Source: Bacillota bacterium (GTDB lineage Bacteria; Bacillota_I; Bacilli_A; RF39; UBA660). From it: a stretch of 64,000 nucleotides of DNA. The stretch covers positions 81,575 to 145,574 of the forward strand of contig SVAW01000001.1 in the NCBI GenBank assembly GCA_015059195.1, written 5' to 3'. This document shows, one piece after another, positions 1 to 57,768 of the stretch. Within the stretch, counting starts at the first letter, position 1. Each line of letters opens with the position of its first letter. Made by a program: the position numbers and the translations under genes. The notes under the pieces were generated by a model. That model was not told the origin of the DNA. It searched no databases and saw only the letters and a list, made by a program, of their open reading frames with translations.

Positions 1-1
1 A

Positions 2-292
2 TTGATGGCAATAATTGGTGCTATAGTATTTTTCTTTAAGCGTACATTTAGTGGTTTCGTTTATTCTATTGCAGTAGTTGATATATTCTTAAGATTACTG
101 GCATATTTAAAAATGAATTTATTTACTGGAGAAGTCGCAAACTTCTTCGTCAGATATTTCCCAAATAGTGTTCCTGCGATTATTAGTAAGTACACCTCTA
201 ACACATTAGAGACAGTACTTATTTGGATTTATATAGGCGTGATGATAATATTTGAATGCTACATTATTAAAACGTTTTTTAACAAAAAATAA
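2..292 (+). CDS. 3' part of a hydrophobic membrane protein (5' end probably outside window)
   Basis: Open frame from the window edge to the stop at 290-292. Translation is rich in TM-like helices. No family recognised. Confidence 0.4.
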   Translation: MMAIIGAIVFFFKRTFSGFVYSIAVVDIFLRLLAYLKMNLFTGEVANFFVRYFPNSVPAIISKYTSNTLETVLIWIYIGVMIIFECYIIKTFFNKK

Positions 293-350
293 TAATTGAC
301 AAACTGAACAAAGCGTAATAAAATTAAAATAGACAAGGGAGTAAGATAGT

Positions 351-416
351 ATGGTTAGAGTAAGTACAGAAAATAAATTAACAAAAATAACCACCTGGGG
401 GGGGGTATTTAAGTAA
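351..416 (+). CDS. Cassette mini-ORF L1, 21 aa MVRVSTENKLTKITTWGGVFK
   Basis: ATG lies 9 nt after AAGGGAG. The poly-G tract is read as TGG GGG GGG G. Stop TAA 414-416 lies in the 3' arm of the hairpin. Start, SD and N-terminus MVR(V/I) are conserved in all four copies. Confidence 0.45.
   Translation: MVRVSTENKLTKITTWGGVFK
397..405 (+). repeat. Homopolymeric G9 tract inside mini-ORF L1
   Basis: Direct count: ccacct + 9 G + tattt. I noticed no other G or C run of 8 or more outside the four cassettes. Confidence 0.9.
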
Positions 417-441
417 CCATACTATAATAAAAGAAATAAAT

Positions 442-498
442 AAACACGAAAGAATTTTAGAAAATCCATCGTTCTAAAATTTGTTTTCGTGTTTTTTT
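442..498 (+). terminator. Intrinsic terminator inside leader cassette 1
   Basis: aaacacgaaa-g-aattttagaa / loop aatccatcg / ttctaaaatt-tgt-tttcgtgttt, followed by a T-run. Two 10-bp helices are separated by a small internal loop. Confidence 0.8.
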
Positions 499-530
499 GT
501 ATGCCTTGTTAAGAATAGGAGGAAAGAAAG

Positions 531-1481
531 ATGAAGAAAAAAGGATTTACACTAATAGAATTACTAGCGGTAATAGTAGTACTAGCAATAATAGCACTAA
601 TAGCAACACCAATAGTAATGAATGTAATTAGTAACGCACAAAAAGGAGCAGCAGAAAGAAGTGCAGATAACTACGTAAAAGCAGTAGAAACATTAATCGC
701 AACAGAAAGATTAGATGGGGAACCAGTAGAAGATGGTACATACACAATAGATGAGAATGGAAACATTAAATCTGGTGATGTAGAATTAACAGTTGAGTTA
801 AATGGAACAAAACCAAATGGAGGAAGTATTGAAATTAAAGATGGACAAGTAGTAAAAAATGAAAGTTCAATCAAGGTAGGAGATTATACTGTTACTTTTG
901 AAGATGGAAAAGCTGAAGCGAAAGAATTAGCCAAACTACTAGATGTATGTCAATTAACAGATGGAGAGGAAAATGAAGTAGGAGCAGAGTACAATTGTAA
1001 CCTAGGAGATGGAGATAGAACATTCTATGTATTAGAAGCAGGAACAAGTAGTAAACCAGCAACATTAATACTAGAAGGAAACTATGATACGACGACACAA
1101 AGCTGGTGCGATCAAAATGGTGATTACCCTAATAATAGTTTATTATGCCAAGCAGATGGCTTAGCTGCTAAATTAGATGAAATAGCATTAGCATGGACAA
1201 AATTAGATAGAAGTCAAATAGGAATACCAAGTGCAGAACAAATCATGGTAGCAGATGGCCAAGCAGAAGATGCATATATAGATTATCCAATGTTAAATAA
1301 TGAATGGTTATGGAGTTGGGATAATGAAGCATGGGGAAATTCAGTGAACGGATATTGGACATCTACGCCTGTTGAGGGTGACTCTTATTCTATTTGGCTG
1401 GTATATGATGATGGTAGTGTTAATAATGATTTTGTGGATACTGACTTTGGTGTTCGACCAGTTCTAATGCTCTCAATTTAA
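531..1481 (+). CDS. Type IV prepilin-like protein with C-terminal DUF1566/FISUMP-like module (paralogue P1)
   Basis: N-terminus MKKKG|FTLIELLAVIVVLAIIALIA is a class III signal with Glu at +5. C-terminal motifs are NCNLGDGDRTFYVLEAGTSSKP, IGIPSAEQIM, GYWTST and FGVRPV. Strong RBS. Confidence 0.85.
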   Translation: MKKKGFTLIELLAVIVVLAIIALIATPIVMNVISNAQKGAAERSADNYVKAVETLIATERLDGEPVEDGTYTIDENGNIKSGDVELTVELNGTKPNGGSIEIKDGQVVKNESSIKVGDYTVTFEDGKAEAKELAKLLDVCQLTDGEENEVGAEYNCNLGDGDRTFYVLEAGTSSKPATLILEGNYDTTTQSWCDQNGDYPNNSLLCQADGLAAKLDEIALAWTKLDRSQIGIPSAEQIMVADGQAEDAYIDYPMLNNEWLWSWDNEAWGNSVNGYWTSTPVEGDSYSIWLVYDDGSVNNDFVDTDFGVRPVLMLSI

Positions 1482-1506
1482 TCTAGGTTTAACCTAGATT
1501 TTTTTA
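1482..1506 (+). terminator. Intrinsic terminator after P1
   Basis: tctagg-tttaa-cctaga followed by a T7 run. Confidence 0.65.
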
Positions 1507-1564
1507 TATAACATTTTCTTGCTTGCTAAACAAATGTTTGCTATAATGATTTTAGGGTGATGAT

Positions 1565-2119
1565 ATGTATTCATATGTTACAGGAAAAATAGATTTAGTA
1601 GAAAGTAATTATGTTGTTATAGATAATAATGGCATAGGATATCAAATATATACTCCTAATCCATATTCATTTGCTGAGGGAGAACAATATAAAGTTTATC
1701 TATATCAATATGTGAGAGAAGATGAAATAAGCTTATATGGATTTAAGACAAAAGAAGAAAAAAGTCTGTTTTTAAAATTAATAGAAGTTAAAGGATTAGG
1801 TTGTAAGATGGCGTTACCGATTCTAGCAACTGGTTCTATAGAAGGCATTATTGATGCTATTGAAAGGGAAAATGTTTTATATTTAAAGAAATTTCCAAAA
1901 ATAGGCGATAAAGTTGCTCGACAAATTATTTTAGATTTGAAAGGAAAATTAGTAAGTTCAAATACCACTAACTTTCAAAGTAAAGATTATTCTGAATTAA
2001 TAGAGGCATTAAAAGCATTAGGATATAAGCAAAGCGACATAAATAAAGTTTTACCTAATATTACGGAAGAAGATGTTGAAAAACAAATAAAAGAGGCACT
2101 AAGATTACTTTTGAAATAA
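1565..2119 (+). CDS. ruvA: Holliday junction branch migration protein RuvA
   Basis: N-terminus MYSYVTGKI...NGIGYQIY and overall length are typical of RuvA. ruvB lies downstream. Confidence 0.9.
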   Translation: MYSYVTGKIDLVESNYVVIDNNGIGYQIYTPNPYSFAEGEQYKVYLYQYVREDEISLYGFKTKEEKSLFLKLIEVKGLGCKMALPILATGSIEGIIDAIERENVLYLKKFPKIGDKVARQIILDLKGKLVSSNTTNFQSKDYSELIEALKALGYKQSDINKVLPNITEEDVEKQIKEALRLLLK

Positions 2120-2129
2120 GGAGGATTTT

Positions 2130-2696
2130 ATGAGAGTAGGAATTGATATAGACGATACTATATGCAGTACTTTTGACTATGTTTTGCCATATTTTTGTCT
2201 GTTCTATAAATTAGATTATAAAAGTATTAAAAAACAAAATGTTGATTATTATTATTTTAATAGTAGGTATTCAAACTATTATGATGTGGCAAAAGTTATA
2301 TATCAAAAAATTACTCCTAATATACCAGTTAATAAGGGAGTCATTAAATACTTAAAAAAAATCAAAAAGTTAGGGCATGAAATAGTTTTTATTACAGCTA
2401 GAGGGAATAAAGGATATGACCGACCATATCAAATATCATATGATTATTTAGTACAAAATAAGGTTCCTTTTGATGCATTAATTGTTGATGCCCAAGATAA
2501 AGGTAAAGTTTGCTTAGAGGAACACGTAGATATATTTTTCGATGATGATATTAATAACTATAATAGTGTTTCATCTAGAGGAATAGAAGTTTATTTATAT
2601 ACTATAAATTCAAATAAAAAATATAAGGATATTAGGCGAGCAAATAATTTTAGACAAATATATAAAATTGTTAGGAGGAAGAGCCGTGCAAGATGA
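2130..2696 (+). CDS. HAD-superfamily hydrolase, possibly a 5'(3')-nucleotidase-like enzyme
   Basis: N-terminal DxDDT motif (GIDIDDTI) and a later FFDDD motif. It sits between ruvA and ruvB. Confidence 0.5.
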
Positions 2697-3678
2697 TAGA
2701 GTTATAACCACCCATGAATTGGAAGAAGATACTTTTGAACAAAATATTCGCCCGGCTAGTTTAGATGAATATATTGGTCAGAGTGAGGTTAAAGATAACA
2801 TGTCAGTTTTTATAAAGGCTGCTAAAATGAGAGAAGAATCATTAGATCACGTGTTATTGTATGGACCACCAGGACTAGGCAAGACAACTTTGGCGTTTAT
2901 AATTGCTAATGAAATGGGAAGTAATATTAAAACATCTAGTGGACCTGCTATTGAGAAAAGCGGAGATTTAGCTGCGTTACTTTCAAGTTTGGAACCTGGA
3001 GATGTATTATTTATTGATGAAATTCATCGAATTCCTAGATATATTGAAGAAATTTTATATTCTGCTATGGAAGATTTTACACTTGATATCATTATTGGCA
3101 GTGATGCATCTAGCAGAAATATTAAAATTAATTTACCACCATTCACATTAGTTGGGGCAACAACTAGAGCAGGCGATTTAACAGGACCATTAAGAGATAG
3201 ATTTGGGATTGTGTCTAAGTTAAATTATTATACAGAATCAGAATTAACTGAAATTGTTAAACGAACCAGTAGAGTTTTAAATTGTGAAATAGACGATAAA
3301 GCTGCAGCGGAACTAGCAAGGCGTAGTAGAGGTACACCGCGTATTGCTAACAGATTATTTAAACGCGTGCGCGATTATGCGATGGTTATGGGAAGTGGGA
3401 TTATTGATTTAAAAATTACTAAAATTGCATTAGATAAACTTAAAGTTGATAATCTTGGCCTTGATCAAACAGATTACAATCTGTTAAGAGCTATTATTGA
3501 GCGATTTGATGGAGGACCTGTTGGAATAGAGGCTATTGCTTCCTCTATTGGCGAGGAGCAGACAACTATAGAAGATGTTTATGAACCATATTTGTTACAA
3601 CAAGGATTCTTAAAAAGAACTAATCGTGGTAGAGTAGTAACAGATAAAGCATATGAGCACTTAAATATCCAGAAATAA
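2686..3678 (+). CDS. ruvB: Holliday junction DNA helicase RuvB
   Basis: Walker [17 protein letters not shown] and the RuvB C-terminal domain. I prefer GTG 2686 (AGGAGG 7 nt upstream) over the TTG at 2668 in the ORF track. Confidence 0.9.
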
Positions 3679-3740
3679 TTATGTATTGACAAAATGAACA
3701 AGGCATAATAAAATTAAAATAGACAAGGGAGTAAGATAGT

Positions 3741-3803
3741 ATGGTTAGAGTAAGTACAAAATTTAATTCAACAAACCACCCGGGGGGGGGGGTATTTAAG
3801 TAA
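3741..3803 (+). CDS. Cassette mini-ORF L2, 20 aa MVRVSTKFNSTNHPGGGVFK
   Basis: Same SD and start as L1. G11 is read as CCG GGG GGG GGG G. It ends at the same TAA as L1. Confidence 0.45.
   Translation: MVRVSTKFNSTNHPGGGVFK
3782..3792 (+). repeat. Homopolymeric G11 tract inside mini-ORF L2
   Basis: Direct count: caccc + 11 G + tattt. Confidence 0.9.
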
Positions 3804-3828
3804 CCATACTATAATAAAAGAAATAAAT

Positions 3829-3885
3829 AAACACGAAAGAATTTTAGAAAATCCATCGTTCTAAAATTTGTTTTCGTGTTTTTTT
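3829..3885 (+). terminator. Intrinsic terminator inside leader cassette 2
   Basis: Same hairpin sequence as 442-498, followed by a T-run. Confidence 0.8.
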
Positions 3886-3986
3886 GTGTACCTTGTTAAA
3901 ACAAAAAAGTATATACTATTTGTATAATTTGAAGTTAAAAAGTACAAAATAAGATATACTGAATATGAAAATAGGAGGAGAGAAAG

Positions 3987-4943
3987 ATGAAGAAAAAAGG
4001 ATTTACATTAATAGAATTACTAGCGGTAATAGTAGTACTAGCAATAATAGCACTAATCGCAACACCAATAGTAATGAATGTAATTAGTAATGCTTCTAAG
4101 GGAGCAGCAGAAAGAAGTGCAGATAACTACGTAAAAGCAGTAGAAACATTAATCGCAACAAAAAGATTAGATGGAGAACCAGTAGAAGATGGGACATACA
4201 CAATAGGCACAGATGGGAACTTAAGTTTTGGTGATGTTGAGTTGAATGGAACAAAACCCAGTGGAGGAACAATTACAATTAAAGATGGACAAGTAGTTAA
4301 GGAAAATGCTTCAATAAAAGTAGGAGACTACACTGTAACATATGATGATGGAGCTGCAAAAGCCGATCAAATTATTGTATTGTGTAAAGCTATTGCTCCA
4401 ATACAACAAGAACTATATGATGCAACTACGAAAACAATGGTTCCAACAACCGTTGGAATACAAGCTACTTCATCAGCACCATACGCAGCGGGAGCAGTAT
4501 ATAGTTGTAATTTAGGTGATGGAGATAGAACATTTTATGTATTAAGTTCAACTAAAGACACAGTGTCGTTATTAATGGAGGAAAATATGGAAAGTCCAGC
4601 TACATGGTGTGCGACTGGCGATGATAATTCATGTAATGGAGATGGAGCAATCGCAAGTTTGAATTCGCAAACAAGTGGATGGTCAAAACTATTTAGTGTA
4701 AATGGTAAAGTTAGTTTACCGTCATACGATGATATGTATGGAGTTATAGGTGATGACTGGACTGCAATTAATTTGACTAATGTTGTTGCTAACAACGGAT
4801 ATTGGACATCTACGCTATGTGATTTTGAAATTACTGAGGCATGGATTGTAGAAAAAACTGATGTTACGACTACTGCTAGTGTTAACGCAGAATTCGGTAT
4901 CCGTCCAGTAATCACAATTTCCACAGAATATATATCACTTTAA
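3987..4943 (+). CDS. Type IV prepilin-like protein with divergent C-terminal DUF1566/FISUMP-like module (paralogue P2)
   Basis: The first ~110 codons are nearly identical to 51742-52650. C-terminal motifs are SCNLGDGDRTFYVL, VSLPSYDDMY, GYWTST and FGIRPV. Confidence 0.85.
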   Translation: MKKKGFTLIELLAVIVVLAIIALIATPIVMNVISNASKGAAERSADNYVKAVETLIATKRLDGEPVEDGTYTIGTDGNLSFGDVELNGTKPSGGTITIKDGQVVKENASIKVGDYTVTYDDGAAKADQIIVLCKAIAPIQQELYDATTKTMVPTTVGIQATSSAPYAAGAVYSCNLGDGDRTFYVLSSTKDTVSLLMEENMESPATWCATGDDNSCNGDGAIASLNSQTSGWSKLFSVNGKVSLPSYDDMYGVIGDDWTAINLTNVVANNGYWTSTLCDFEITEAWIVEKTDVTTTASVNAEFGIRPVITISTEYISL

Positions 4944-7228: not shown

Positions 7229-7597
7229 ATGAAACGTGGATTTACATTAATTGAGTTGTTAGCTATTATGGTAGTTTTAGGGATGATTGCTGTAATTGCG
7301 ATTCCAAACATTCAAACGGCCTTTTCAAAATCGAAACAAAATCTATTAGAAAATCAAATTAAATCTATAGAAAATGTTGCGCGTTCGTGGGGGGTTAAAA
7401 ATACTAACAAACTAGATGATTGTTATGTTTTAACTTTAGACGAATTAAAAAGATTAGGGTATTTAGAGAATCAAGATGTTATTAATCCAGAAACTAAAGA
7501 GGAGTTAGATGGTTGCATAAAAATTACTTTTGATGAAAGTATAAATCAATATAAATATACCTATACTGAAAGTACTTTATGTAGCTGCAATAATTAA
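7229..7597 (+). CDS. Small type IV pilin/pseudopilin-like protein (ComGC-size)
   Basis: MKRG|FTLIELLAIMVVLGMIAVIAIP. The C-terminal core resembles 50707-51108, 51117-51515 and the N-terminal half of 33261-34190. Confidence 0.8.
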   Translation: MKRGFTLIELLAIMVVLGMIAVIAIPNIQTAFSKSKQNLLENQIKSIENVARSWGVKNTNKLDDCYVLTLDELKRLGYLENQDVINPETKEELDGCIKITFDESINQYKYTYTESTLCSCNN

Positions 7598-7599: not shown

Positions 7600-9816
7600 A
7601 TGAAAAAGGTTGAACTTTTAGCGCCCGTTGGGTCATTGGCGTCATTATATGCTGCCATTAATGCAGGATGTGATGCAGTATATTTAAGCGGATATATGTT
7701 TGGGGCACGTCAGTTTGCTCCAAATTTTTCAGATGAAGAAATTGTAGAAGCGATAAAAACTTGCCATATTTATGGAGTAAAAGTTTATATTACTGTAAAT
7801 ACTTTAATCAAAGATTCAGAGGTTGAAACGCTTTTAGAGTATGTAGAGTTCTTGCACAAAAATAATGTAGATGCAGTAATTATGCAAGATTTAGGAATGA
7901 TTGATTTAGTTAGAAAAACGTTTCCACAGTTAGAAATTCATGCTTCTACACAGCTACACATTCATAATTTAGAAGGTGTTAAGTTGTGTGAAAAGTTAGG
8001 GATTAAAAGAGTAGTACTAGCTAGAGAAACAGATATTAATACGGTTAAAAACATTAAATCAAACACTAACGTTGAGTTAGAGGTATTTGTTCACGGGGCA
8101 CTATGCGTTAGTTACTCTGGACAATGCTTGATGAGTAGCTTAATTGGTGGTAGAAGTGGAAATAGAGGCTCGTGTGCGGGAACATGTCGTCTTCCGTATA
8201 CTCTTTTAAATAAGGAGGGCAAAAGAATAAATAAAGAAGACTATATCTTGAGCATGAAAGATTTATACACTTTAGAACATATCGATGAACTTATCGAAAG
8301 TGGAATAGAAAGTTTTAAGATAGAAGGTAGAATGAAAAGACCAGAGTATGTTTACTTAGTTGTTTCTCTATACCGTAAAGCAATAGATTCATATTATGAA
8401 ACAGGACATGTAATTATTGATGAAAATTATCTTGATGATTTAAAGAAGATCTTTAATCGTAAATTTACTAAGGGTTTTTTATTTAATGAGCACAATAATA
8501 ATATTACTAATAGTTATAGGCCAAATCACTTGGGAGTCGAAGTTGGTAAAATAGTAGATTTTAATAATAAAAGCATTACTATAAAACTTTTAGATGATTT
8601 AAGAGTTGGAGATGGAATTAGAATTATTGGTGATGATTTTGGTTTTATGGTGACTAGTATTTATAAAAATAAAAACAGAGTTGACTGCGCTAGTAAGAGT
8701 GACATAGTTACTATATTTATGCCAGAAAAAGGTTGTAAGGTTAGTATAAGTAAAAATAATCTGATAGTAAAAACTACCGATTCTAAGCAGATTGAAGAAT
8801 TAAAATCACAAGTTAATTCTATTAATAAAAAAATAATTCTTGAAGGAACTATTGTATTAACTAAAGGAAAGCCTCTTTGTTTAGAACTTAGTGACGGATT
8901 AAACTGTGTGAGGGTAGAGGGTGAAATGGTTGAAGAAGCTAAAAATGCACCTTTGGATATTTCTCAAATAGAAAAACAAATTAAGAAATTGGGTAGTACT
9001 CCATTTGTATTAGGGAAACTATCAGTAGAAAAAGATGAAAAAATATATATTAATAATAAATATATTAATGATCTGAGAAGAAAAGCGACTGATGAATTAG
9101 CAGCTTTGAGAAATTATAAAACTGATTTTGTAAAGGGAAAATATACTATTTCAGTTCCTAGCTTTGAGCGTAAACAAGAAACAAATATTTTGTTAGAAGA
9201 TAGTAAGTTTTATTCAAAAATTAAAGATTTGAATTTGAATTATATTTATACTGATGATTATAATTTGTTTTCTAATAATGATAGCAGATTGATTTTAAAA
9301 CTGCCTAGAGTTATGCATAAATTTGAAGAATATAATAAACCGTTACTAGTGGGAGAGGTAGGAAGCTTACAACTGTGTAACAAAGTTGCTGGGGATTTTT
9401 CTCTAAATGCATTTAATTCGTATACAGTAGCATTCCTTCATTCTATTGGTGTAGAAAAAATTTTACTATCCTATGAACTTAGTATTGAAGATATTAAAGA
9501 ACTTATTATGGCGTATGAGAAAAGATATACTAAAATGCCAAATGTGGAGGTCCTGATTTATGGAAGAGAAGAGATGATGATCAGTAAATTCAGTTTAAAT
9601 AAATTATATAGAGGGGACAACCTTTATTTATGTGATAGATTTAATAATAGTTATCCTGTGAGAGAAAAAGATGATTTAATGTATATATATAACCATAAGC
9701 CAAGAGTTTGGGATTTAGCAATTAAAGATTATTATGATTTAGGAGTTAATGCAGTTAGAATAAATATTTTTGATAATAAAGACCTAGAGTGGGTTTTGTC
9801 AAAAATAGAAAGCTAA
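7600..9816 (+). CDS. Peptidase U32 family protein (long form)
   Basis: N-terminus ELLAPVGS...AGCDAVYLSG and the E-x-F-x-H-G-A-L-C (FVHGALCVSYSGQC) signature. Confidence 0.8.
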   Translation: MKKVELLAPVGSLASLYAAINAGCDAVYLSGYMFGARQFAPNFSDEEIVEAIKTCHIYGVKVYITVNTLIKDSEVETLLEYVEFLHKNNVDAVIMQDLGMIDLVRKTFPQLEIHASTQLHIHNLEGVKLCEKLGIKRVVLARETDINTVKNIKSNTNVELEVFVHGALCVSYSGQCLMSSLIGGRSGNRGSCAGTCRLPYTLLNKEGKRINKEDYILSMKDLYTLEHIDELIESGIESFKIEGRMKRPEYVYLVVSLYRKAIDSYYETGHVIIDENYLDDLKKIFNRKFTKGFLFNEHNNNITNSYRPNHLGVEVGKIVDFNNKSITIKLLDDLRVGDGIRIIGDDFGFMVTSIYKNKNRVDCASKSDIVTIFMPEKGCKVSISKNNLIVKTTDSKQIEELKSQVNSINKKIILEGTIVLTKGKPLCLELSDGLNCVRVEGEMVEEAKNAPLDISQIEKQIKKLGSTPFVLGKLSVEKDEKIYINNKYINDLRRKATDELAALRNYKTDFVKGKYTISVPSFERKQETNILLEDSKFYSKIKDLNLNYIYTDDYNLFSNNDSRLILKLPRVMHKFEEYNKPLLVGEVGSLQLCNKVAGDFSLNAFNSYTVAFLHSIGVEKILLSYELSIEDIKELIMAYEKRYTKMPNVEVLIYGREEMMISKFSLNKLYRGDNLYLCDRFNNSYPVREKDDLMYIYNHKPRVWDLAIKDYYDLGVNAVRINIFDNKDLEWVLSKIES

Positions 9817-9868: not shown

Positions 9869-11155
9869 ATGATAGTAGGAAAAAAGATAGAAGATGGAAA
9901 AGAATTAACCAAAACAAAAAAACTAGGCTTTTTTACTAGACCCAAATACGTATATATACCTTTAATCTGTCAAAGTGATAGAGATATTACTACGATTGTA
10001 AAAAAGGGTGAATATGTGTATAAAGGCTCTATTGTAGGTAAACGAAAAGGTGCCTATAGACTACCGATTTATTCTAGCGTTAGTGGAACTGTTGTTGATT
10101 TTGTAGAGAAAAAACATATAGATGGTTCCTTAGTTAAATGTGTTGTTATTGAAAATGATTTTAAAGAAAAATTGGAAGAAAAACAAGCGGTTCGAAAAAG
10201 CATTAATGATTATTCTAAGCAAGAATTCATAAAGAGATTACAAGAATGTGGAATAGTAGGTATGGGAGGTTCTGGTTTCCCTACTTACTTAAAATATAAT
10301 ACGAGTAAGAAACTAAGAACATTAATTGTTGATGCTGTGGAATGTGAGCCATATATTACTGCAGATGTTAGTCTAATAAAAGAAAAATGTGAAGAAATTT
10401 TGGAAGCCATTGATGCTATTATGGAGATTAATGGTATCAAAGAATGTTTTATAGGAATAAAAAAGGATAGTAAAATAATTGAATTATTAGAAAATTATTT
10501 AGGTACTTATCCTAAAATAAAAATAGCTATTGTTCCTAATATTTATCCCATGGGGTGGGAAAGATATTTAGTTAAATATGTTAAAAAAACAAATTATAAA
10601 TTATTACCCTTAGAAAAAGGAATTGTAGTTAATAATATTAGTACTATTTATGCAATTTATGAAGCGTTAAAGTATAATAAACCAATAATAGAAAGGATTG
10701 TGACTTTTACAGGCGAAATGTTAAAAAGTCCTCAAAATGTGTATGTTAAAGTAGGGACTTCTGTACGAGATGTAATTGAATTTATTGGCGGTTATAAAAG
10801 AAATAAAGATGTTGTTATTATTGCTGGAGGTCCAATGATGGGTAAAAGCATAGATGATGATGACTTTGTAGTTACTGCCAATTTAAATTGTGTTGTTGTC
10901 ATGAAAGAACAAAAAAAAGAAGAGGTGTTAAATTGTTTTAGATGTGGCAAATGTGTTTCGATTTGCCCTAGCAGATTATCACCAGTTCTTATTAAGGATA
11001 GTTTGAAAAATATTGATAATTTAAAAGAACTTCGCCCTGAAAAGTGTATTGAGTGTGGTTTGTGTTCGTTTGTTTGTCCTTCTAAAATTAACATTAGAGG
11101 ATGCGTTATAGAAGGAAAAAGAAAAGTTTTTAAAGAAAGGGGCGACACTAAGTGA
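9869..11155 (+). CDS. rnfC: Rnf electron transport complex subunit C
   Basis: GMGGSGFPT motif and two C-terminal CxxCxxCxxxCP ferredoxin motifs. It heads the rnf operon. Confidence 0.85.
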   Translation: MIVGKKIEDGKELTKTKKLGFFTRPKYVYIPLICQSDRDITTIVKKGEYVYKGSIVGKRKGAYRLPIYSSVSGTVVDFVEKKHIDGSLVKCVVIENDFKEKLEEKQAVRKSINDYSKQEFIKRLQECGIVGMGGSGFPTYLKYNTSKKLRTLIVDAVECEPYITADVSLIKEKCEEILEAIDAIMEINGIKECFIGIKKDSKIIELLENYLGTYPKIKIAIVPNIYPMGWERYLVKYVKKTNYKLLPLEKGIVVNNISTIYAIYEALKYNKPIIERIVTFTGEMLKSPQNVYVKVGTSVRDVIEFIGGYKRNKDVVIIAGGPMMGKSIDDDDFVVTANLNCVVVMKEQKKEEVLNCFRCGKCVSICPSRLSPVLIKDSLKNIDNLKELRPEKCIECGLCSFVCPSKINIRGCVIEGKRKVFKERGDTK

Positions 11156-12903
11156 AAGATTTTCATGTAAAGATAGGTCCTTTTAAAAAAAGTGATAATT
11201 CCACCAGAAGAACAATGGTTCATCTTTTAATTGCATTATCACCAATTATAGTTTTTGCGTTTTACAAAAACGGGATTATACCATATCAAAAGGGATATAG
11301 TAATTTCTTAGAAATGTTTTTTCCAATACTATTTATATTACTGCCAACATTAACTTCGTTTATAACAGAATTATTATATTCTATTATCTTTTTGAAAAAG
11401 AAAAATGATGCATTGAAAGAATATTTAAGTGAATCATTTAGTATTTTCCCAGGATTATTTTTAGGACTTATTCTTCCAATTAATACCCCGATTTCAATTG
11501 TAATTTTGGGTGCTTTTTTAGCTACATTTGTTGGAAAGTTACTGTTTGGCGGGTTTGGCAATAATATATTTAATCCAGCATTGATTGGAAGGTTACTTGT
11601 AGTATCATCATATGCACTTGTTATGAGTGAAAGTGGTGGATATTTAAATGCTTATGAGATAGATACTATTGCTTCAGTAACACCTTTATCTAATGCTGTA
11701 TCCGGTATTGGATCATATGAAACGTTAATTTCTCCGTATGGTAGTTTATGGGATTTCTTTTTAGGGACTATTCCTGGTTCTTTAGGTGAAACTAGTTCCG
11801 CACTTTGCATTTTAGGTTTTATTTACTTAACTATTACGAAAGTTATCAAGTGGAAAATACCTACAACGTATATTTTAACTGTTTTTATGATGACTTATAT
11901 GATTGGAAGTATTAACGAGCTTGGGGTTTGGTATCCTTTATTTCAAGTATTTAGTGGAGGCTTGATGTTTGGGGCTATTTTTATGGCAACAGATCCTGTT
12001 ACCAGCCCGACAACACCGATAGGCCAAATTTTATATGGTATAGGTCTTGGAATATTAACTGTGATATTTAGATATTTAACACCTTTCCCAGAGGGTGTAT
12101 TGACAAGTATTCTTACTATGAACATGTTAGTATTTATTATTGATAAGATAGGGGCCAAAGCTAGATTTAATTTTAAACAAGCGTTACTACCGTTTTTAAT
12201 CATGTGGTTTTTAATTATTGGAATAGGTGGTTTTATAGGTAATCATTATCAAAATCAAGAGCCTAATGTAGATCCTGATTTTAATATTATCTCTAAAGAA
12301 ATAAGGGATAATCAAACCACTTATGTAGTAACTCAAAAAGGATATTCTGGTATACTAAAAGCAAGTATTTTATTTGATAAGGGAGTTATTGCGTCAATTG
12401 ACATTATAAGCCAAAATGATTCTTTTTTTCAAAAAATAGAAGATAATAATTACATTAATAAGTTGATTGAAGATGCACAAAGATTAGAAAACATAGATGC
12501 GGTAAGTGGAGCCACAATTACTTCAAATGCATTAAAACAAATGGTAATAAACACCTTAAATGATTATAATAGGGATATGGCTAACGAACAAAATTTTTCG
12601 GTATTAGATCACTATATAGAGGGTGATAACACTATTTATGAAGTGTCTCAAAAAAGCTTTCAAGGGAACTTGCAATTGAGAATTGTATTTCAAGATAATA
12701 TAATTTCTTCCATTACAGTTATTAAGTGTGAAGATTCATATTTTAACTTGATAATAAATGATGACTATATCCAAAAAATAATAACTAATCAACAAAAATT
12801 AGATGAGTTAGATGTGGTTAGCGGAGCTACTATAAGTTCAAATAGCTTGAAGCAAGCTATAACTAATACCAAAAAGGAGTATCAAAAAGATTATGCAAAA
12901 TAA
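11152..12903 (+). CDS. rnfD: RnfD fused to two tandem RnfG-type FMN-binding domains
   Basis: N-terminal polytopic RnfD (NPALIGR, FMATDPVTSP). The C-terminal ~230 aa contain two FMN_bind-like repeats (DAVSGATITSNALKQ and DVVSGATISSNSLKQ). Confidence 0.8.
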   Translation: MKDFHVKIGPFKKSDNSTRRTMVHLLIALSPIIVFAFYKNGIIPYQKGYSNFLEMFFPILFILLPTLTSFITELLYSIIFLKKKNDALKEYLSESFSIFPGLFLGLILPINTPISIVILGAFLATFVGKLLFGGFGNNIFNPALIGRLLVVSSYALVMSESGGYLNAYEIDTIASVTPLSNAVSGIGSYETLISPYGSLWDFFLGTIPGSLGETSSALCILGFIYLTITKVIKWKIPTTYILTVFMMTYMIGSINELGVWYPLFQVFSGGLMFGAIFMATDPVTSPTTPIGQILYGIGLGILTVIFRYLTPFPEGVLTSILTMNMLVFIIDKIGAKARFNFKQALLPFLIMWFLIIGIGGFIGNHYQNQEPNVDPDFNIISKEIRDNQTTYVVTQKGYSGILKASILFDKGVIASIDIISQNDSFFQKIEDNNYINKLIEDAQRLENIDAVSGATITSNALKQMVINTLNDYNRDMANEQNFSVLDHYIEGDNTIYEVSQKSFQGNLQLRIVFQDNIISSITVIKCEDSYFNLIINDDYIQKIITNQQKLDELDVVSGATISSNSLKQAITNTKKEYQKDYAK

Positions 12904-17524: not shown

Positions 17525-18001
17525 ATGAATATTATTAAAAAACATAAGTTTTTAGTATTGTTTATAAGCATTTTTATTGTTTTAATGATTATTGTTATTT
17601 TTGGAGTGATACAGTCAAACTCTTCTTCTGATAGTAACAGCAAGTACGGGAACAGATTAGTTGGAATAGAAAACATGCAAATTACTGATTCTAGGTTACA
17701 AACTGTTAAGGGAAACGTTTTAAGTGATAAAAGTGTGAATGATTTATCACATGATATAACAGGTAGAATAATTAAAATCTTTATTCAGGTCAAACCGGAA
17801 ACAGATGAAATAAAAATACAGTCATTAATGAATATAATTTTAGAAAATTTCACTGATGATGAGAAAAAATTTTATGATTTTCAGGTATTTATAACTAATG
17901 AGGTAGAAGAGACTGAGTTATATCCAATGATTGCATATAAACATCGTAATAATGTAGCTTTTACGATAACAAAGAAGGTAGGAGAAAAGAATGAAAAATA
18001 A
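17525..18001 (+). CDS. Membrane-anchored hypothetical protein
   Basis: N-terminal TM helix. It overlaps the start of the downstream GGDEF-like gene. Confidence 0.4.
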   Translation: MNIIKKHKFLVLFISIFIVLMIIVIFGVIQSNSSSDSNSKYGNRLVGIENMQITDSRLQTVKGNVLSDKSVNDLSHDITGRIIKIFIQVKPETDEIKIQSLMNIILENFTDDEKKFYDFQVFITNEVEETELYPMIAYKHRNNVAFTITKKVGEKNEK

Positions 18002-33260: not shown

Positions 33261-34190
33261 ATGAAAAATAAAGGCTTTACTTTAGTAGAACTACTTGCAG
33301 TTTTAGTTCTTATTTCTGCAATAATATTAATTGTTGTTCCAAGTATTATTAATTATGTAAATGAAAGTAAGGATAATATTAGTGAAGCGACAGCACAAAT
33401 ACTTTATTCTGGTGCGCAGTTATATGTAGATGCTAATCCAGACAAGTTTTCAAAAGTTGAAGGAAGACAAATTTGTGTAACGCTAGAAGAAATAGTTGCT
33501 TTAAACTATTTGACAGAACCAATAGTTGATAGTATAAGTGGTGAGGAGATAGATTTAGAAACTGCAATAACGATTACTTATACATATGACAAAAATTTGC
33601 AGTATTTAAAACCAGAATATGATGTTTCTGATTCTTGTAAACTTTGTACATTAGTAAATGGCGCGTTTAATGAAGTTGGTTCAAAATATACTTGCGACTT
33701 AGGAGATGGAGATAGAACATTTTATGTATTAGAAGCAGGAACAAGTAGTAAATCAGCAACATTAATACTATATGGGAATTATGATACAATGACTTTGGCG
33801 TGGTGTGACCAGAATGGAGATAATCCGAAAAACAATTCGTGTCATGCAGATGGCTTAGAACTAAAATTAGATGAAATAGCATTAGCTTGGAACAAATTAG
33901 GTAGAAGCCAAATAGGATTACCAAGCATGGAGCAAATTATGGTGGCAGATGGAAGAGGCGAAAATGATTATGAAGGAGGGCAACTGCAGCTAAGTAACAA
34001 ATTTTTATATAGTGGTTATCCGACAACCGATACAACAACACAGGGTTATTGGACATCTACAGGCAGTCCCACTAATGCCTATTATGCACTGCTTTTAAAT
34101 CGCTATGGCAAAACTGCCTCAAATTATGTATATGCAAATCATCTTTATGGCATTCGCCCAGTAATTTATTTAGATTTAAAACAAATATAA
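33261..34190 (+). CDS. Chimeric pilin: small-pilin body fused to the shared DUF1566/FISUMP-like C-terminal module (paralogue P3)
   Basis: MKNKG|FTLVELLAVLVLISAI. Residues ~1-125 resemble the small pilins at 7229, 50707 and 51117. The rest carries TCDLGDGDRTFYVLEAGTSSKS, IGLPSMEQIM, GYWTST and YGIRPV. It has an ordinary promoter region and no leader cassette. Confidence 0.85.
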   Translation: MKNKGFTLVELLAVLVLISAIILIVVPSIINYVNESKDNISEATAQILYSGAQLYVDANPDKFSKVEGRQICVTLEEIVALNYLTEPIVDSISGEEIDLETAITITYTYDKNLQYLKPEYDVSDSCKLCTLVNGAFNEVGSKYTCDLGDGDRTFYVLEAGTSSKSATLILYGNYDTMTLAWCDQNGDNPKNNSCHADGLELKLDEIALAWNKLGRSQIGLPSMEQIMVADGRGENDYEGGQLQLSNKFLYSGYPTTDTTTQGYWTSTGSPTNAYYALLLNRYGKTASNYVYANHLYGIRPVIYLDLKQI

Positions 34191-41024: not shown

Positions 41025-42038
41025 TTGGGTGATAATGTGGCAAAAAAATTTAAAGGTAAAAAGAGTAAAATTAAAATTTTAAAATATGCCGTTATATTAA
41101 TCGTTATATATTTAATATATTCATTATTTTCGTTTTTACTTTTGAATATTAAGTTAGTAGATAATAATGAAGATTTTATTAGAAACTTGTTAGGGGATTC
41201 TAATTATCATATGTTTTATGAAAAAAGAAGTCAAAATGTGATTTATCGTATTGCTAGCATTTTAACTAATTTCAATCTTAAAGAGCCATTATCAATTTTG
41301 GAAAATAGTTTTGGCTATGAAAGCGTAGATAATTCTAACTCCAATTTAGTTTATAATGGGGATTATGAAGTTGATAATTCAATACAGTCTATAATAGATT
41401 ATATGAGTAAGGATGAAGATATTAAAGAACCTCTAGTATATATTTATAATTCACATCAAACGGAAGGATATAGTAAAGAATATTTAAAAAATGAAAATAT
41501 TACACCAAATGTGTTAATGGCAGGATATCTTTTGAAGGAAAAGTTGGATAAATTAGGGGTCCCTACAATAATAGAAGAATCAAACATTTCAGAGTTTTTA
41601 AGAATCAATAATTGGAATTATAATGCTAGCTATAAAGCGAGCAGATTTTATTTGTTAGATGTAATGGAAAAGTATCCTAGTATTAAATTATTTATAGATT
41701 TGCATAGGGATGCACTTTCTAAAAATAGTTCTACAGTAACTCTTAATAATAAAAAGTATGCGAAAGTGTTATTTGTGGTTGGAAAGGAACACAAAGATTA
41801 TCAACAAAATCTAAATCTTGCTAATCAATTAAATGATCTGATTAAGGCTAAATATCCAACGCTAACAAGAGGTGTTTTACAAAAAGAGGGTTCTAACGTA
41901 AATGGAATATATAATCAGGACTTAAGTTCCAATATTATCTTATTAGAACTAGGTGGTCATGAAAACACGATAACAGAAGTATTAAATACTATAGAAATTA
42001 TATCTATAATTATAAAGGAGCATATAAATGAAAACTGA
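41025..42038 (+). CDS. spoIIP: Stage II sporulation protein P
   Basis: YIYNSHQTEGY, IDLHRDA and LELGG motifs. An N-terminal TM helix is present. The start may be the GTG at 41037. Confidence 0.8.
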   Translation: MGDNVAKKFKGKKSKIKILKYAVILIVIYLIYSLFSFLLLNIKLVDNNEDFIRNLLGDSNYHMFYEKRSQNVIYRIASILTNFNLKEPLSILENSFGYESVDNSNSNLVYNGDYEVDNSIQSIIDYMSKDEDIKEPLVYIYNSHQTEGYSKEYLKNENITPNVLMAGYLLKEKLDKLGVPTIIEESNISEFLRINNWNYNASYKASRFYLLDVMEKYPSIKLFIDLHRDALSKNSSTVTLNNKKYAKVLFVVGKEHKDYQQNLNLANQLNDLIKAKYPTLTRGVLQKEGSNVNGIYNQDLSSNIILLELGGHENTITEVLNTIEIISIIIKEHINEN

Positions 42039-42372
42039 AACTAAAATTAAACGCAGAAATAAAATATTTAGGTGGACAATGTTTTTCCTTTTTCTTCTTT
42101 TTTTAACATTGTATCTATCTCAAGCTACTGGATATTATGAATATGAACAAAGTAGAAAAACAGCTTTTACAGAAGAGCAAATAAAACAATTTGAACAAGA
42201 TGTAAAAGATGGGAAAGAAATAGATGTCAACTCATATTTAGAAAATACGAATAAAAATTATCAAAACAATATATCGAAAGCTACGCTTAGTATATCTGAG
42301 GCCATATCAAAATATATGAAATTAGGAATCGAAAAAATGTTTGAAGGTATAGCCAAAATAATTGAGGAGTAA
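42028..42372 (+). CDS. YqxA-like small membrane protein (by position after spoIIP)
   Basis: 114 aa with an N-terminal TM helix, overlapping the spoIIP end. B. subtilis has yqxA in this position. Confidence 0.45.
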   Translation: MKTETKIKRRNKIFRWTMFFLFLLFLTLYLSQATGYYEYEQSRKTAFTEEQIKQFEQDVKDGKEIDVNSYLENTNKNYQNNISKATLSISEAISKYMKLGIEKMFEGIAKIIEE

Positions 42373-51116: not shown

Positions 51117-51515
51117 ATGAAAAAAGGCTTTACACTAGTAGAACTGCTTGCGGTTTTGTCAATTTTGGGGATATTAGCGGTGATTATAATTCCATCCGTA
51201 GCTACTACTATAAAAAATTCAAGAGTTGCTGCCTATGATAAACAGCTTTATGTTTTAGCTACGGCCACAGAAAAATGGGGAACTCAGCACCTAAACGAAC
51301 TTCCTGAGACAACATCTAACAACATAGTTGCAGTTGATTTTGAAACACTATATCAAGCTGGGGAAATTGCTTCTTATCCTGTACAAAACCCAATTACTGG
51401 GAACGACTTAGAAGGCTGTATCTTAATTTCGTATAACTTGCAATATAAACAATATGAGTACAAATATTCTGATAATTTAGCAGTATGCGATGATAACCAT
51501 TATAATAATGATTGA
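51117..51515 (+). CDS. Small type IV pilin/pseudopilin-like protein (tandem paralogue)
   Basis: MKKG|FTLVELLAVLSILGILAVIIIP ... GCILISYNLQYKQYEYKY. Confidence 0.8.
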   Translation: MKKGFTLVELLAVLSILGILAVIIIPSVATTIKNSRVAAYDKQLYVLATATEKWGTQHLNELPETTSNNIVAVDFETLYQAGEIASYPVQNPITGNDLEGCILISYNLQYKQYEYKYSDNLAVCDDNHYNND

Positions 51516-51566
51516 CAAAATGAACAAGGCATAATAAAATTAAAATAGACAAGGGAGTAAGATAGT

Positions 51567-51623
51567 ATGGTTAGAGTAAGTACAAAATTTAATTCAACAA
51601 ACCACCTGGGGGGGGGTATTTAA
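51567..51623 (+). CDS. Cassette mini-ORF L3, 18 aa MVRVSTKFNSTNHLGGGI
   Basis: Same SD and start. G9 is read as CTG GGG GGG GGT. It ends at the alternative TAA (ATT TAA), a different frame from L1 and L2. Confidence 0.45.
   Translation: MVRVSTKFNSTNHLGGGI
51608..51616 (+). repeat. Homopolymeric G9 tract inside mini-ORF L3
   Basis: Direct count: cacct + 9 G + tattt. The flanks are otherwise almost identical to copy 2, which has G11. Confidence 0.9.
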
Positions 51624-51652
51624 GTAACCATACTATAACTAGAAAAATAAAT

Positions 51653-51709
51653 AAACACGAAAGAATTTTAGAAAATCCATCGTTCTAAAATTTGTTTTCG
51701 TGTTTTTTT
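51653..51709 (+). terminator. Intrinsic terminator inside leader cassette 3
   Basis: Same hairpin as 442-498, followed by a T-run. Confidence 0.8.
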
Positions 51710-51741
51710 GTGTACCTTGTTAAGAATAGGAGGAGAATTTT

Positions 51742-52650
51742 ATGAAAAAGAAAGGATTTACATTAATTGAGTTACTAGCGGTAATAGTAGTACTAGCAAT
51801 AATAGCGTTAATCGCAACACCAATAGTAATGAATGTAATTAGTAATGCTTCTAAGGGAGCAGCAGAAAGAAGTGCAGATAATTATATTAAAGCAGTAGAA
51901 ACATTAATCGCAACAAAAAGATTAGATGGAGAACCAGTAGAAGATGGTGTATACACAATAAGGGCAGATGGGAACCTTAAATTTGGTAATGTTGTGTTAA
52001 ATGGAACAAAACCAAGTGGAGGAAGTATTGAAATTAAAGATGGACAAGTAGTTAAAAATGAAAGTTCAATCCAGGTGGGCGACTACGTAGTAAGTTATAA
52101 AGATGGAAAAGCAGAAGCAAAAGGATTAGCGAAACTAGACGATGTATGTCAATTAACAGATGGAGAAAAAAATGAAGTAGGAGCAGAGTACAATTGTAAC
52201 CTAGGAGATGGAGATAGAACATTCTATGTATTAGAAGCAGGAACAAGTAGTAAACCAGTAACATTAATATTAGAAGAAAACTATGATGTGGAAACTCTAG
52301 CATGGTGCGATCCTGATGTAGAACATTCTGAAGAAGAGGGTTGTAATGCAGATGGATTAACAGAAAAATTTAATTCGATTAGAGGAGCATGGTCGAAATT
52401 GGATAAAAAACAAATAGCTTTACCAACTTATGAGCAAATTTATGCGGTTAATGATGATGAATCATTCAAAAACGTTGGTTGGTTATATGATAACTTGGAG
52501 GAATCATCAGCACCATACGGTTATTGGCTTTCTGATTCATTGAATTGGGATGAAACATGGTTTGTTGACTATACAGGAATTATGAATTTTGATTCAACAT
52601 CGATAGCTAATAGGTATGGTGTTCGCCCAGTAGTAATGCTTCATATTTAG
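51742..52650 (+). CDS. Type IV prepilin-like protein with DUF1566/FISUMP-like C-terminal module (paralogue P4)
   Basis: The N-terminal ~190 codons form a mosaic of P1-like and P2-like sequence. C-terminal motifs are IALPTYEQIY, GYWLSD and YGVRPV. Confidence 0.85.
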   Translation: MKKKGFTLIELLAVIVVLAIIALIATPIVMNVISNASKGAAERSADNYIKAVETLIATKRLDGEPVEDGVYTIRADGNLKFGNVVLNGTKPSGGSIEIKDGQVVKNESSIQVGDYVVSYKDGKAEAKGLAKLDDVCQLTDGEKNEVGAEYNCNLGDGDRTFYVLEAGTSSKPVTLILEENYDVETLAWCDPDVEHSEEEGCNADGLTEKFNSIRGAWSKLDKKQIALPTYEQIYAVNDDESFKNVGWLYDNLEESSAPYGYWLSDSLNWDETWFVDYTGIMNFDSTSIANRYGVRPVVMLHI

Positions 52651-57487: not shown

Positions 57488-57587
57488 AATTTCACTTCCA
57501 TATTTATTATATCGTAAATTAGGATAAATTTGGTTGGCAAAATGAACAAAGCGTAATAAAATTAAAATAGACGAGGAGTAAGATAGT

Positions 57588-57716
57588 ATGGTTAGAATAA
57601 ATGTAAAAAAACAAATAACAAAAAAGCTCCTGGGGGGGGGGAGGTATTTAAGTAATCATACTATAACTAGAAAAATAAATAAACACGAAATAATTTTAGA
57701 AAATCCATCGTTCTAA
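57588..57716 (+). CDS. Cassette mini-ORF L4, 42 aa MVRINVKKQITKKLLGGGRYLSNHTITRKINKHEIILENPSF (read-through frame)
   Basis: G10-A-GG puts the ribosome in the third frame. The ORF runs through the hairpin 3' arm and the terminator 5' arm and loop. It stops at TAA 57714-57716 inside the terminator 3' arm. Confidence 0.4.
   Translation: MVRINVKKQITKKLLGGGRYLSNHTITRKINKHEIILENPSF
57632..57641 (+). repeat. Homopolymeric G10 tract (then AGG) inside mini-ORF L4
   Basis: Direct count: ctcct + 10 G + a + gg + tattt. Confidence 0.9.
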
Positions 57717-57736
57717 AGTTTGTTTTCGTGTTTTTT
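57681..57736 (+). terminator. Intrinsic terminator inside leader cassette 4
   Basis: Same scaffold as the other copies, with one wobble substitution and a T6 run. Confidence 0.75.
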
Positions 57737-57768
57737 GTATGCCTTGTTAAGAATAGGAGGAAAGAAAG

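Follow-up and report, generated by a model that had tools for sequence, protein, structure and literature searches.

Five large open reading frames (ORFs) that begin with a prepilin motif lie dispersed among housekeeping genes in a 64,000-nucleotide (nt) stretch of a Bacillota contig (SVAW01000001.1, positions 81,575 to 145,574; hereafter, the window). The question raised by this locus, and by its first large ORF, P1, in particular, is what such a set of genes is for, when near-identical 5' ends are joined to widely diverged 3' ends. The answer that we favor, with reservations as to the whole chain, is that they encode alternative pilus-displayed binding subunits, with heads diversified by recombination among paralogues and with expression set copy by copy by a poly-G attenuator. 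The architecture of the proteins, a pilin module followed by a separate C-terminal module (C-module), can be stated with high confidence. Our confidence in the adhesin function and in actual switching is lower than that in architecture and mosaicism.

Modular type IV pilins in the window

A six-frame scan of the window revealed eight ORFs with a prepilin motif, five large (P1 to P5) and three small. The GenBank annotation of the pilin genes is generic. The large ORFs and the two parts of P1 are as follows.

531..1481, + strand: P1, bimodular type IV pilin, 316 amino acids (aa), GenBank MBE6138194.1
531-926, + strand: P1 pilin part, leader MKKKG-F plus pilin module (aa 1-132)
933-1478, + strand: P1 C-module, modeled as C-type-lectin-like, DUF6273/Lcl_C-type (aa 135-316)
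3987..4943, + strand: P2, bimodular pilin, 318 aa, P1/P4-like 5' half and diverged C-module
33261..34190, + strand: P3, bimodular pilin, 309 aa, different, small-pilin-like pilin module, without poly-G leader
51742..52650, + strand: P4, bimodular pilin, 302 aa, GenBank MBE6138252.1
57769..58296, + strand: P5, 175 aa, in-frame deletion derivative

P1, P2, P4, and P5 begin with MKKKG-FTLIELLAV and P3 begins with MKNKG-FTLVELLAV, and residues G5, F6, T7, L8, and E10 are invariant among 60 homologues. The prepilin N terminus that a first-pass annotation had recognized from the sequence was borne out by hidden Markov models (HMMs). PF07963 scores 25 to 31.4 bits in the five proteins (31.4 for P1; cut-off, 21.2), TIGR02532 scores 33.1 bits (cut-off, 16.3), and both exceed their cut-offs in all copies. 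In addition, the family profile matches solved type IV pilins over helix alpha1 (Streptococcus sanguinis PilE1, Geobacter, MshA, and PilA; E values of 2e-7 to 1e-3). None of the equivalog models (ComGC, GspG, PilA, and others) reaches its cut-off. On these sequence matches, the P1-type proteins are type IV pilins with a class III signal peptide.

The full-length AlphaFold2 model, for which the 60 homologues served as input, has a predicted local distance difference test score (pLDDT) of 89.8 and consists of alpha1 (residues 8-61), the strands of a beta-sheet (residues 69-132), and a separate C-module. Since the two modules fold separately and the C-module type also occurs outside type IV pilus biology (in Lcl, phage proteins, and an IgA peptidase), the proteins are modular pilins in the sense of Raynaud et al. 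2021.

In P5, most of alpha1-C is missing, as are the pilin beta-sheet and the first third of the C-module (junction ALIALIALIATERLDGEPVEAGT); the leader, the signal peptide, and the remaining two thirds of the head are retained. Two in-frame deletions account for this, with joints at short repeats (ALIALIALIA; EPVE-AGT). It is probably nonfunctional as a pilin and probably a decaying copy, or it may be a mere sequence donor; the P1 head is nearest to P5 in alignment columns 221-280 (75-81% nt identity).

A C-type-lectin-like head

Compared with the PDB, the full-length model was uninformative except for a match to 9qa6. Because the two modules dilute each other in such a search, the C-module was re-predicted alone (pLDDT, 94.8; predicted template-modeling score, 0.90). 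The top PDB match found by Foldseek was then 8q4e_A, the C-terminal domain of Lcl (E value, 7.6e-4; probability, 1.0; TM-score, 0.42 by query and 0.55 by target; 15% identity). The second was 9qa6 (E value, 8.7e-4), the IgA peptidase of Thomasclavelia ramosa, whose N-terminal domain is a DUF6273 domain (PMC12402451). In BFVD, the best matches were six DUF6273 phage proteins (E values, 3e-5 to 5e-4; probability, 0.99-1.0; TM-score, 0.45-0.62), followed by DUF1566 phage proteins and receptor-binding proteins. DUF6273 has been described as C-type-lectin-like (PMC10743442), as has the Lcl C-terminal domain (Lcl-CTD), which binds glycosaminoglycans (PMC11162425). The C-type-lectin-like fold that the first-pass annotation had expected for the head is thus supported at the level of the model.

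The same annotation had traced the conserved C-terminal anchors to DUF1566 (Lcl_C) and to the Fibrobacter domain TIGR02145. All five large proteins do have the anchors themselves, I/VxI/LPS/TxxQ/D, (G/A)YW(T/L)S(T/D), and (F/Y/V)G(V/I)RPV. The DUF1566 assignment stood as to type: besides the top structural match, Lcl_C is found in 24 of 60 family members at an E value of <=1 (best, 1.3e-4). Within the window, none of the five proteins matches the Lcl_C/DUF1566 HMM (PF07603) at an E value of <=1, and P1 reaches the sister family DUF6273 (PF19789; 23.8 bits; cut-off, 23.5; E value, 4.4e-5; HMM positions 127-171 of 172), the only Pfam family reached by its C-module. The DUF6273 HMM gave no match for P2 to P5; across the family, it matches 34 of 60 members at an E value of <=1 (best, 1.5e-5). 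The Fibrobacter assignment fell away, TIGR02145 being absent both from the 21 NCBIfam matches of P1 at an E value of <=1 and from the top 25 families over the 60 members. The family sequence profile, searched against the PDB, found pilin N termini only and did not reach Lcl. As modeled, the C-module is a disulfide-containing module of ~180 residues that belongs to the DUF6273/DUF1566 (Lcl_C) superfamily and has a C-type-lectin-like fold.

Variation in the family is concentrated in this module. Column entropy is 2.4-2.9 bits at residues 241-270 and 281-300 versus 0.2-0.4 bits at residues 1-30. The most variable stretch lies between GYWTST and GVRPV, among conserved core motifs, and C140 and C156 are invariant. 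Because family variability peaks in the C-module, the heads most likely differ in their ligands. With 190 representatives at an E value of <=1e-3 among 1.84 billion, the head subfamily is small. A canonical prepilin N terminus is present in 76 of the 150 best C-module representatives, and the remainder are mostly fragments or pilin-like variants; fusion of the C-module to a pilin is the rule in most complete proteins.

Six relatives (P0126, P0137, P0141, P0142, P0167, and P0172) carry the head module in three to five tandem copies, in proteins of 470-906 aa. Their N termini (MKNNKGFAISS...) are pilin-like and lack the Glu at +5.

Pilus machinery in related loci

The relatives are metagenome-assembled genomes (MAGs) of uncultured gut Bacilli or 'Tenericutes.' Regular expressions for the T2SSE Walker box and the A24 motif, applied to 1.26 Mb of related loci, hit only L045 and L074. 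In L074, a PilC-type T2SSF protein and a PilD-type A24 peptidase adjoin a pilin that is 47% identical to the P1 N terminus. The row at L074:6086-11280, from a related gut MAG, consists of a 649-aa T2SSF protein, the PilD-type peptidase, two unknown ORFs, a 167-aa pilin, and a Laminin_G_3 (concanavalin-A [ConA]-like lectin) protein. This row resembles the S. sanguinis PilC arrangement.

In L045, from an Erysipelotrichaceae MAG, a pilin 54% identical over the first 70 residues lies inside a Tad-like cluster. The row at L045:79-7164 holds two TadE proteins, a ParA/TadZ-like protein, T2SSE, an N_methyl-type pilin (341 aa, G-FTLIE), and two T2SSF proteins, an unusual pairing of pilin type with machinery type. 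The L045 pilin was considered as a family member, having an anchor-like C terminus (FWTMSP ... CVRPVINV), and was rejected, as BLASTP, hhalign, the C-module HMM, and Pfam did not detect it.

These proteins might instead be pseudopilins or anchors of a Com-, T2SS-, or Tad-like short filament (T2SS, type II secretion system), in which a domain like those of phage receptor-binding proteins binds the cell-wall glycans of the bacterium itself or of neighboring bacteria. Their role would then lie in co-aggregation, biofilm formation, or DNA/substrate capture, and the pressure to vary would come from phages for which the pilus is a receptor and not from host immunity. The closest structural relatives after Lcl, phage DUF6273/DUF1566 and receptor-binding proteins, would fit this, as would N-terminal HMM similarity to ComGC, GspG, and GspH that is as good as that to PilA, with no equivalog reached, and the placement of one relative (L045) in a Tad-like cluster. 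However, a pilin architecture with a variable head is equally compatible with host-directed adhesion, and the best solved match, Lcl, is an adhesin for host glycosaminoglycans (PMC11162425). We consider the pseudopilin explanation unlikely and retain the pilus-displayed adhesin as the preferred one.

A leader with a poly-G run upstream of four copies

P1, P2, P4, and P5 share ~230 nt upstream of the gene; P3 has no poly-G leader. The leader consists, in order, of a promoter, a ribosome-binding site (RBS; AAGGGAG), an upstream ORF (uORF) that contains the poly-G run (19-22 codons in the short frame), an AT-rich hairpin with a U-run, the pilin RBS, and the ATG.

296..324, + strand: P1 leader promoter, sigma-70-type TTGACA-17-TAAAAT (11/12 match), kept in P2, P4, P5, and other species
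351..416, + strand: P1 leader uORF, MVRVSTENKLTKITTWGGVFK followed by a stop, with RBS AAGGGAG before it; G9 at 397-405; short frame
436..500, + strand: P1 intrinsic-terminator-like hairpin and U-run (-20.6 kcal/mol; z about -6 to -6.7)
3686..3887, + strand: P2 leader; promoter 3686-3714; uORF 3741-3803 with G11 at 3782-3792, short frame; terminator ~3823-3887
51512..51711, + strand: P4 leader; promoter 51512-51540; uORF 51567-51623 with G9 at 51608-51616, short frame; terminator ~51647-51711
57534..57738, + strand: P5 leader; promoter TTGGCA-17-TAAAAT 57534-57562; uORF 57588-57716 with G10 at 57632-57641; terminator ~57675-57738

All four uORFs were verified by translation. Past the G run, every leader has a single frame that remains open for 57-90 nt; the other two stop within 3-17 nt. 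The long frame ends in the 3' arm of the terminator in the window (in P1, it would stop at 475-477) and in most related leaders; in L083, it runs past the terminator. The P5 uORF is in the long frame, with 42 codons that read into the terminator. The P2 leader has an extra insert of ~70 nt between terminator and RBS. The same anatomy is found in L087 to L089, apparently from the same species, and in L005, L006, L010, L026 (two leaders), and L083, from at least three other assemblies, in which the hairpin sequence differs and still folds.

This order of elements is that of the pil1 pilus locus of Streptococcus gallolyticus, where the length of a repeat in a leader peptide controls a premature terminator via the translating ribosome, long peptides being ON (Danne et al. 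2014, PMC3894217). By analogy, each leader, and with it four of the five window copies, may form a phase-variable attenuator in which a strong promoter is followed by a short uORF with a G9-G11 run and then by an intrinsic terminator, ahead of the pilin RBS. If slipped-strand mispairing added or removed one G, the uORF frame would shift. In one of the three frames, the ribosome would translate into the terminator and block its formation, turning the gene ON; in the other two, translation would stop shortly after the run and leave the gene OFF. By the pil1 logic, P1, P2, and P4 are predicted to be OFF in the consensus as assembled, and only P5 has its uORF in the long frame.

G runs of this kind are concentrated at pilin genes. 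The 1.26 Mb of related loci contain 27 runs of at least eight Gs, and 21 of these have a prepilin motif within 450 nt downstream; run lengths across paralogues and species are 8-11. Some other related MAGs have a G9-G11 run directly upstream of pilin genes, in the spacer from a TTGACA -35 element to the -10 element (L011 ~920-990; L027 ~130-200; L075 ~9330-9400 and ~10570-10640; L067 1-53). The promoter spacer is the classic phase-variation position for homopolymer runs. With runs in promoter spacers there and in uORFs here, the clade would have two poly-G switch designs for pilins. For the species of the window, a promoter role of the poly-G run near a TATAAT -10 element was considered and rejected: the spacing does not fit and the -35 element would be GGGGGG. 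The uORF reading takes its place.

The start region of the uORF (AUAGUAUGGUUA) pairs with UAACCAUACUAU just after the G run, forming a conserved stem (354-365 with 413-424 in P1 and the same positions in other leaders). Stem variants in other species keep the pairing via G-U, and the stem may gate uORF initiation. Because pilA1 of Clostridioides difficile has one, a cyclic di-GMP (c-di-GMP) riboswitch was suspected in the leader. Rfam found no riboswitch or known RNA there, including the c-di-GMP riboswitch (gathering thresholds over the whole window; E value of <=10 for positions 280-540). In metagenome scans, the poly-G run plus the downstream 22-mer gave no matches, and a conserved 35-mer from the 5' coding part gave four loci, all in other species.

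Alternatively, the leader is no phase switch at all: it could be a constitutive attenuator, a riboregulator, or a separate small RNA gene, with the G run as a structural or binding element of fixed length. Run lengths that are identical over three to four assemblies per locus would agree with this, and so would the conserved stem, with its G-U-compatible changes only, and the longer leaders (P2, L005, L006, L083, and L087), which have extra promoter-like sequence after the terminator. Such an element accounts poorly, however, for run lengths that vary between paralogues and species, for the strong enrichment of these runs upstream of pilin genes in DNA of ~30% GC, for their exact placement in promoter spacers in other relatives, and for the conservation of uORF, RBS, and frame geometry; moreover, no Rfam family matches. 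A fixed element is improbable on this balance, and we keep to the switchable attenuator.

Separately, a terminator at 42386-42442, after the ORF at 42028-42372, is 86% identical to the terminator region of the L002 leader (near-identical to that of the window), with a compensatory stem change from CACG/CGTG to CATG/CATG. This identity suggests that the terminator module of the leaders serves at an unrelated gene as well.

Mosaic structure and recombination among the copies

The near-identical 5' ends noted for P1, P2, and P4 were confirmed, at ~90-95% nt identity over the first 60 codons. In successive windows of 20 codons, identity is 98, 88, and 98% for P1/P2, 92, 85, and 92% for P1/P4, and 93, 97, and 93% for P2/P4. 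As described from the first reading, the variants NASKG, ATKRL, and NGTKPSGG (S37, K59, and PSGG) are common to P2 and P4 in the protein alignment, where P1 has NAQKG, ATERL, and NGTKPNGG. Further along, P1 and P4 share the second block that had been singled out, DVCQLTDGE.NEVGAEYNCNLGDGDRTFYVLEAGTSSKP.TLILE.NYD, which is diverged in P2. This block of ~50 residues (alignment columns 161-200) is 96-98% identical between P1 and P4 at the nucleotide level, with P2 53-72% identical there.

The closest partner of a copy thus switches along the gene, as sliding-window identities show. A max-chi-square breakpoint test on informative sites with 2000 permutations gave p<=0.0005 for four triplets (P1/P2/P4, P1/P3/P4, P1/P3/P2, and P1/P3/P5), with breakpoints near alignment columns 75-79, 110, and 192-211. 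Synonymous divergence (dS) varies more than 10-fold within one gene pair. It is 0.43, 0.37, 0.07, 0.95, and 1.75 along P1-P4, and for P1-P3, it is 3.39 in the N-terminal pilin module versus 0.40 in columns 161-205. Such strong heterogeneity of synonymous divergence within the same pair argues that the patchwork does not merely reflect differing protein constraint.

P3 is the clearest mosaic, and its pilin module is best compared with the small prepilins of the window.

7229..7597, + strand: small classical prepilin, 122 aa
50707..51108 and 51117..51515, + strand: two small classical prepilins, 133 and 132 aa, directly 5' of the P4 leader

The P3 pilin module is 29-30% identical to the ORFs at 7229 and 51117 and essentially unalignable with that of P1 (32-42% nt identity), and the P3 C-module reaches 97% nt identity to P1 over 60 nt. 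Between strains, a head appears to have been exchanged: the strain contig L002 is 98.2% identical to window positions 1-4545 and then has an unrelated C-module in the P2 slot. The breakpoints, the heterogeneity of dS, and this swap together back the first-pass proposal of recombination or gene conversion among paralogues. Judged from sequence comparison, the mosaicism is very probably real.

The sequences are short-read metagenome assemblies, so the mosaic could be partly or wholly an artefact, produced by assemblers that join reads of paralogues or strains across the ~0.5-kb repeat of leader and 5' part and across shorter blocks. Flanks do differ per assembly. L087 and L088 have the same 313-aa pilin gene, with ezrA as the upstream neighbor in one and a sigma-factor gene in the other. 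L002 and the window part in mid-P2, and the gene is then followed by ybeY/era/recO in L002 (L002:13457-14380) and by rnhB in the window (3987-4943). These differences may be rearrangements at repeats or chimeric metagenome joins across the ~0.5-kb repeat. Against an artefactual origin of the genes themselves, the exact P1, P4, P0014, and P0038 proteins were found on 10, 16, 8, and 13 contigs, respectively, and the loci fetched for them stem from several Joint Genome Institute (JGI) samples; the recurrence of P1 and P4 in particular shows that the pilin genes are not assembly one-offs. Furthermore, the shared blocks carry scattered substitutions and are not identical, the bimodular architecture and the leader recur in other species, and every copy is an intact ORF with a high-confidence fold. 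An assembly artefact is therefore very unlikely.

That a diversity-generating retroelement (DGR) caused the C-terminal variability is hardly credible. Phage DUF6273 domains are often DGR targets (PMC10743442), and the hypervariable stretch does sit where DGR variable regions usually do, at the C-terminal end of the fold. However, the window ORFs include no reverse transcriptase, a search of the window found no template-repeat-like copy of any 3' 300 nt outside the genes, and the paralogues, at ~50% nt identity, are separated by indels and by substitutions that affect all base types.

The recombining family extends beyond the window. Three further paralogues, P0014, P0038, and a 304-aa gene in L089, are apparently from the same species. 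P0014 and P0038 are probably co-located with P1, since the longest contig is 239,718 bp for all three. The bimodular pilin family has at least eight dispersed members in one species.

Proposed model and points against it

In the model that we propose, the class III signal peptide (MKKKG-FTLIE) and the pilin module, comprising alpha1 and a four- to five-stranded sheet, would allow insertion into a type IV filament, on which the grafted C-type-lectin-like module of ~180 residues would form a variable head. If the heads differ in the ligands that they bind, whether glycans or other surface molecules, the proteins would serve as alternative adhesins displayed on the pilus. Homologous recombination or gene conversion between the copies would generate their diversity. 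The leader and the first ~65 codons, kept near-identical by concerted evolution, would act as a recombination handle, and C-module segments would be swapped in blocks, even onto a different pilin module as in P3. The attenuators would set the expression of each copy.

Several observations weigh against this model. Searches of the 64-kb window and of the same-species-like loci (L002/L003 and L087 to L090, each up to ~21 kb and partly overlapping) turned up no pilus ATPase, platform protein, or prepilin peptidase. As for the head, the DUF6273 match of P1 is marginal and covers the last 45 residues only, and P1 has no Lcl_C match. In the PDB, canonical C-type-lectin-like domains (CD23, CD72, MGL, and snake-venom proteins) gave only nonsignificant Foldseek matches (E values, 0.4-2; probability, <=0.25), and Lcl-CTD lacks Ca2+/sugar motifs (PMC11162425), for which reasons carbohydrate is only a putative ligand. 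With regard to the switch, the pattern of one open and two closed frames has a chance probability of ~0.13 per leader, and because the leaders compared are homologous, the frame statistics are only suggestive. G-run length was not polymorphic at a locus (P1, 9/9/9/9; P2, 11/11/11) in the window and two to three other assemblies, which, as consensus assemblies, are a weak test. All full-length poly-G copies in the window are in the short, predicted OFF frame, the only long-frame leader being that of the truncated P5. Finally, different short-read metagenome assemblies join different flanks at these repeats, a warning that such repeats break or mis-join short-read assemblies.

A bolder extension, which we put forward tentatively and think less probable than not, is combinatorial surface variation in uncultured gut Bacilli. 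The at least eight pilin genes, with heads of the phage-receptor-binding-protein type shuffled by gene conversion and with independent poly-G switches, would let single cells show different adhesin combinations on one pilus. Such a system would be a commensal, monoderm counterpart of Neisseria pilE/pilS plus Opa, built from different parts. Hardly any study has dealt with the type IV pili of monoderm gut commensals, and the organisms concerned are uncultured. If the model is true, one system joins modular pilins, variable domains of C-type-lectin fold (DGR-diversified in phages), and leader-peptide attenuators (known from one streptococcal sortase pilus), and it would provide heritable, reversible diversity in pilus binding targets. 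The model can be tested on existing metagenomic reads, by heterogeneity in G-run length, and with simple reporters. The natural head variants also offer a set for ligand discovery.

Relation to known systems

The fusion of a prepilin to a lectin-like domain had been put forward as uncharacterized, which overstated its novelty. S. sanguinis has modular type IV pilins, PilB with a vWA module and PilC with a ConA-like lectin module (Raynaud et al. 2021, PMC8179133; Shahin et al. 2023, PMC9934059), and PilC has been characterized. The prepilin-DUF1566 architecture was already listed in an InterPro survey (Dataset S1), where IPR012902-IPR011460 occurs seven times, plus two cases with two DUF1566 copies (PMC8179133). 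The proteins of the window share with PilB and PilC a class III signal peptide, a small pilin module, a short linker to a ligand-binding module, a monoderm host, and a predicted tip display and adhesin role. They differ in having a DUF6273/Lcl_C-type head in place of a vWA or ConA-like one, in forming at least eight dispersed, recombining paralogues per genome and not single genes in a pil locus, and in that most copies have their own poly-G leader; the present family is known computationally only.

Lcl-CTD of Legionella pneumophila (DUF1566; 8q4e; PMC11162425) likewise has a C-type-lectin-like fold and serves as a surface adhesin head that binds glycosaminoglycans. Lcl, however, is a T2SS-secreted trimer with a collagen-like stalk and no disulfides, whereas the pilin heads have conserved cysteines and an extra N-terminal beta segment and share ~15% sequence identity with Lcl-CTD. 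The heads also resemble DUF6273 domains, which are found in phage receptor-binding proteins and DGR targets (tentaclins, PMC10743442) and in the T. ramosa IgA peptidase (PMC12402451), in their C-type-lectin-like fold and in a variable surface near the C terminus. Those domains belong to phage tail or fiber proteins, often DGR-diversified, or to a sortase-anchored protease, in contrast to the pilin fusion and the apparent diversification by paralogue recombination found here.

The leader has the components of S. gallolyticus pil1, namely, a promoter, a leader ORF with a slippage-prone repeat, a premature stem-loop terminator, and the pilus gene or genes. The repeat is GCAGA there and a G9-G11 homopolymer here; pil1 is one sortase-pilus operon and not several independent type IV pilin genes; and switching and its polarity are proven there and predicted here.

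Neisseria varies its pilin antigenically through pilE/pilS, and poly-G/poly-C phase variation affects pilC, opa, and the Bordetella fim genes. A repertoire of pilin variants that recombine via conserved 5' parts and the presence of homopolymer tracts (stochastic ON/OFF there) are common to Neisseria and the present family. No promoterless silent pilS-like cassettes were found in the window, where tblastn and blastn recovered only the five genes and the three small pilins. Unlike in pilE/pilS, each of the five copies comes with a start codon and an RBS-like sequence of its own, and a full promoter-containing leader precedes four of them. In addition, the variable part is a whole grafted domain and not the hypervariable loop of the pilin itself, and the tract would act via a leader uORF and terminator and not, as in Neisseria and Bordetella, via the coding frame or promoter spacing.

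Modular lectin pilins, the DUF1566/DUF6273 C-type-lectin-like binding domain, leader-peptide phase-variation attenuation, and the prepilin-DUF1566 architecture are thus known already. What appears to be new is their combination in a dispersed, recombining pilin family with a poly-G attenuator on most copies, in uncultured monoderm gut bacteria.

Other features of the window

The window is a chromosome segment of ~29% GC from a spore-forming Bacillota organism, with ruvAB, rnhB, rnfCDGEA, serS, gpr, spoIIP, dnaE, spoVA, and cotE as marker genes. A GGDEF-domain protein of 687 aa (diguanylate cyclase) is encoded at 17991-20054; c-di-GMP is a frequent regulator of type IV pili in Clostridia. The rnfD-like ORF at 11152-12903 (583 aa) contains NQR2_RnfD and two FMN_bind stretches and is an apparent RnfD-RnfG fusion.

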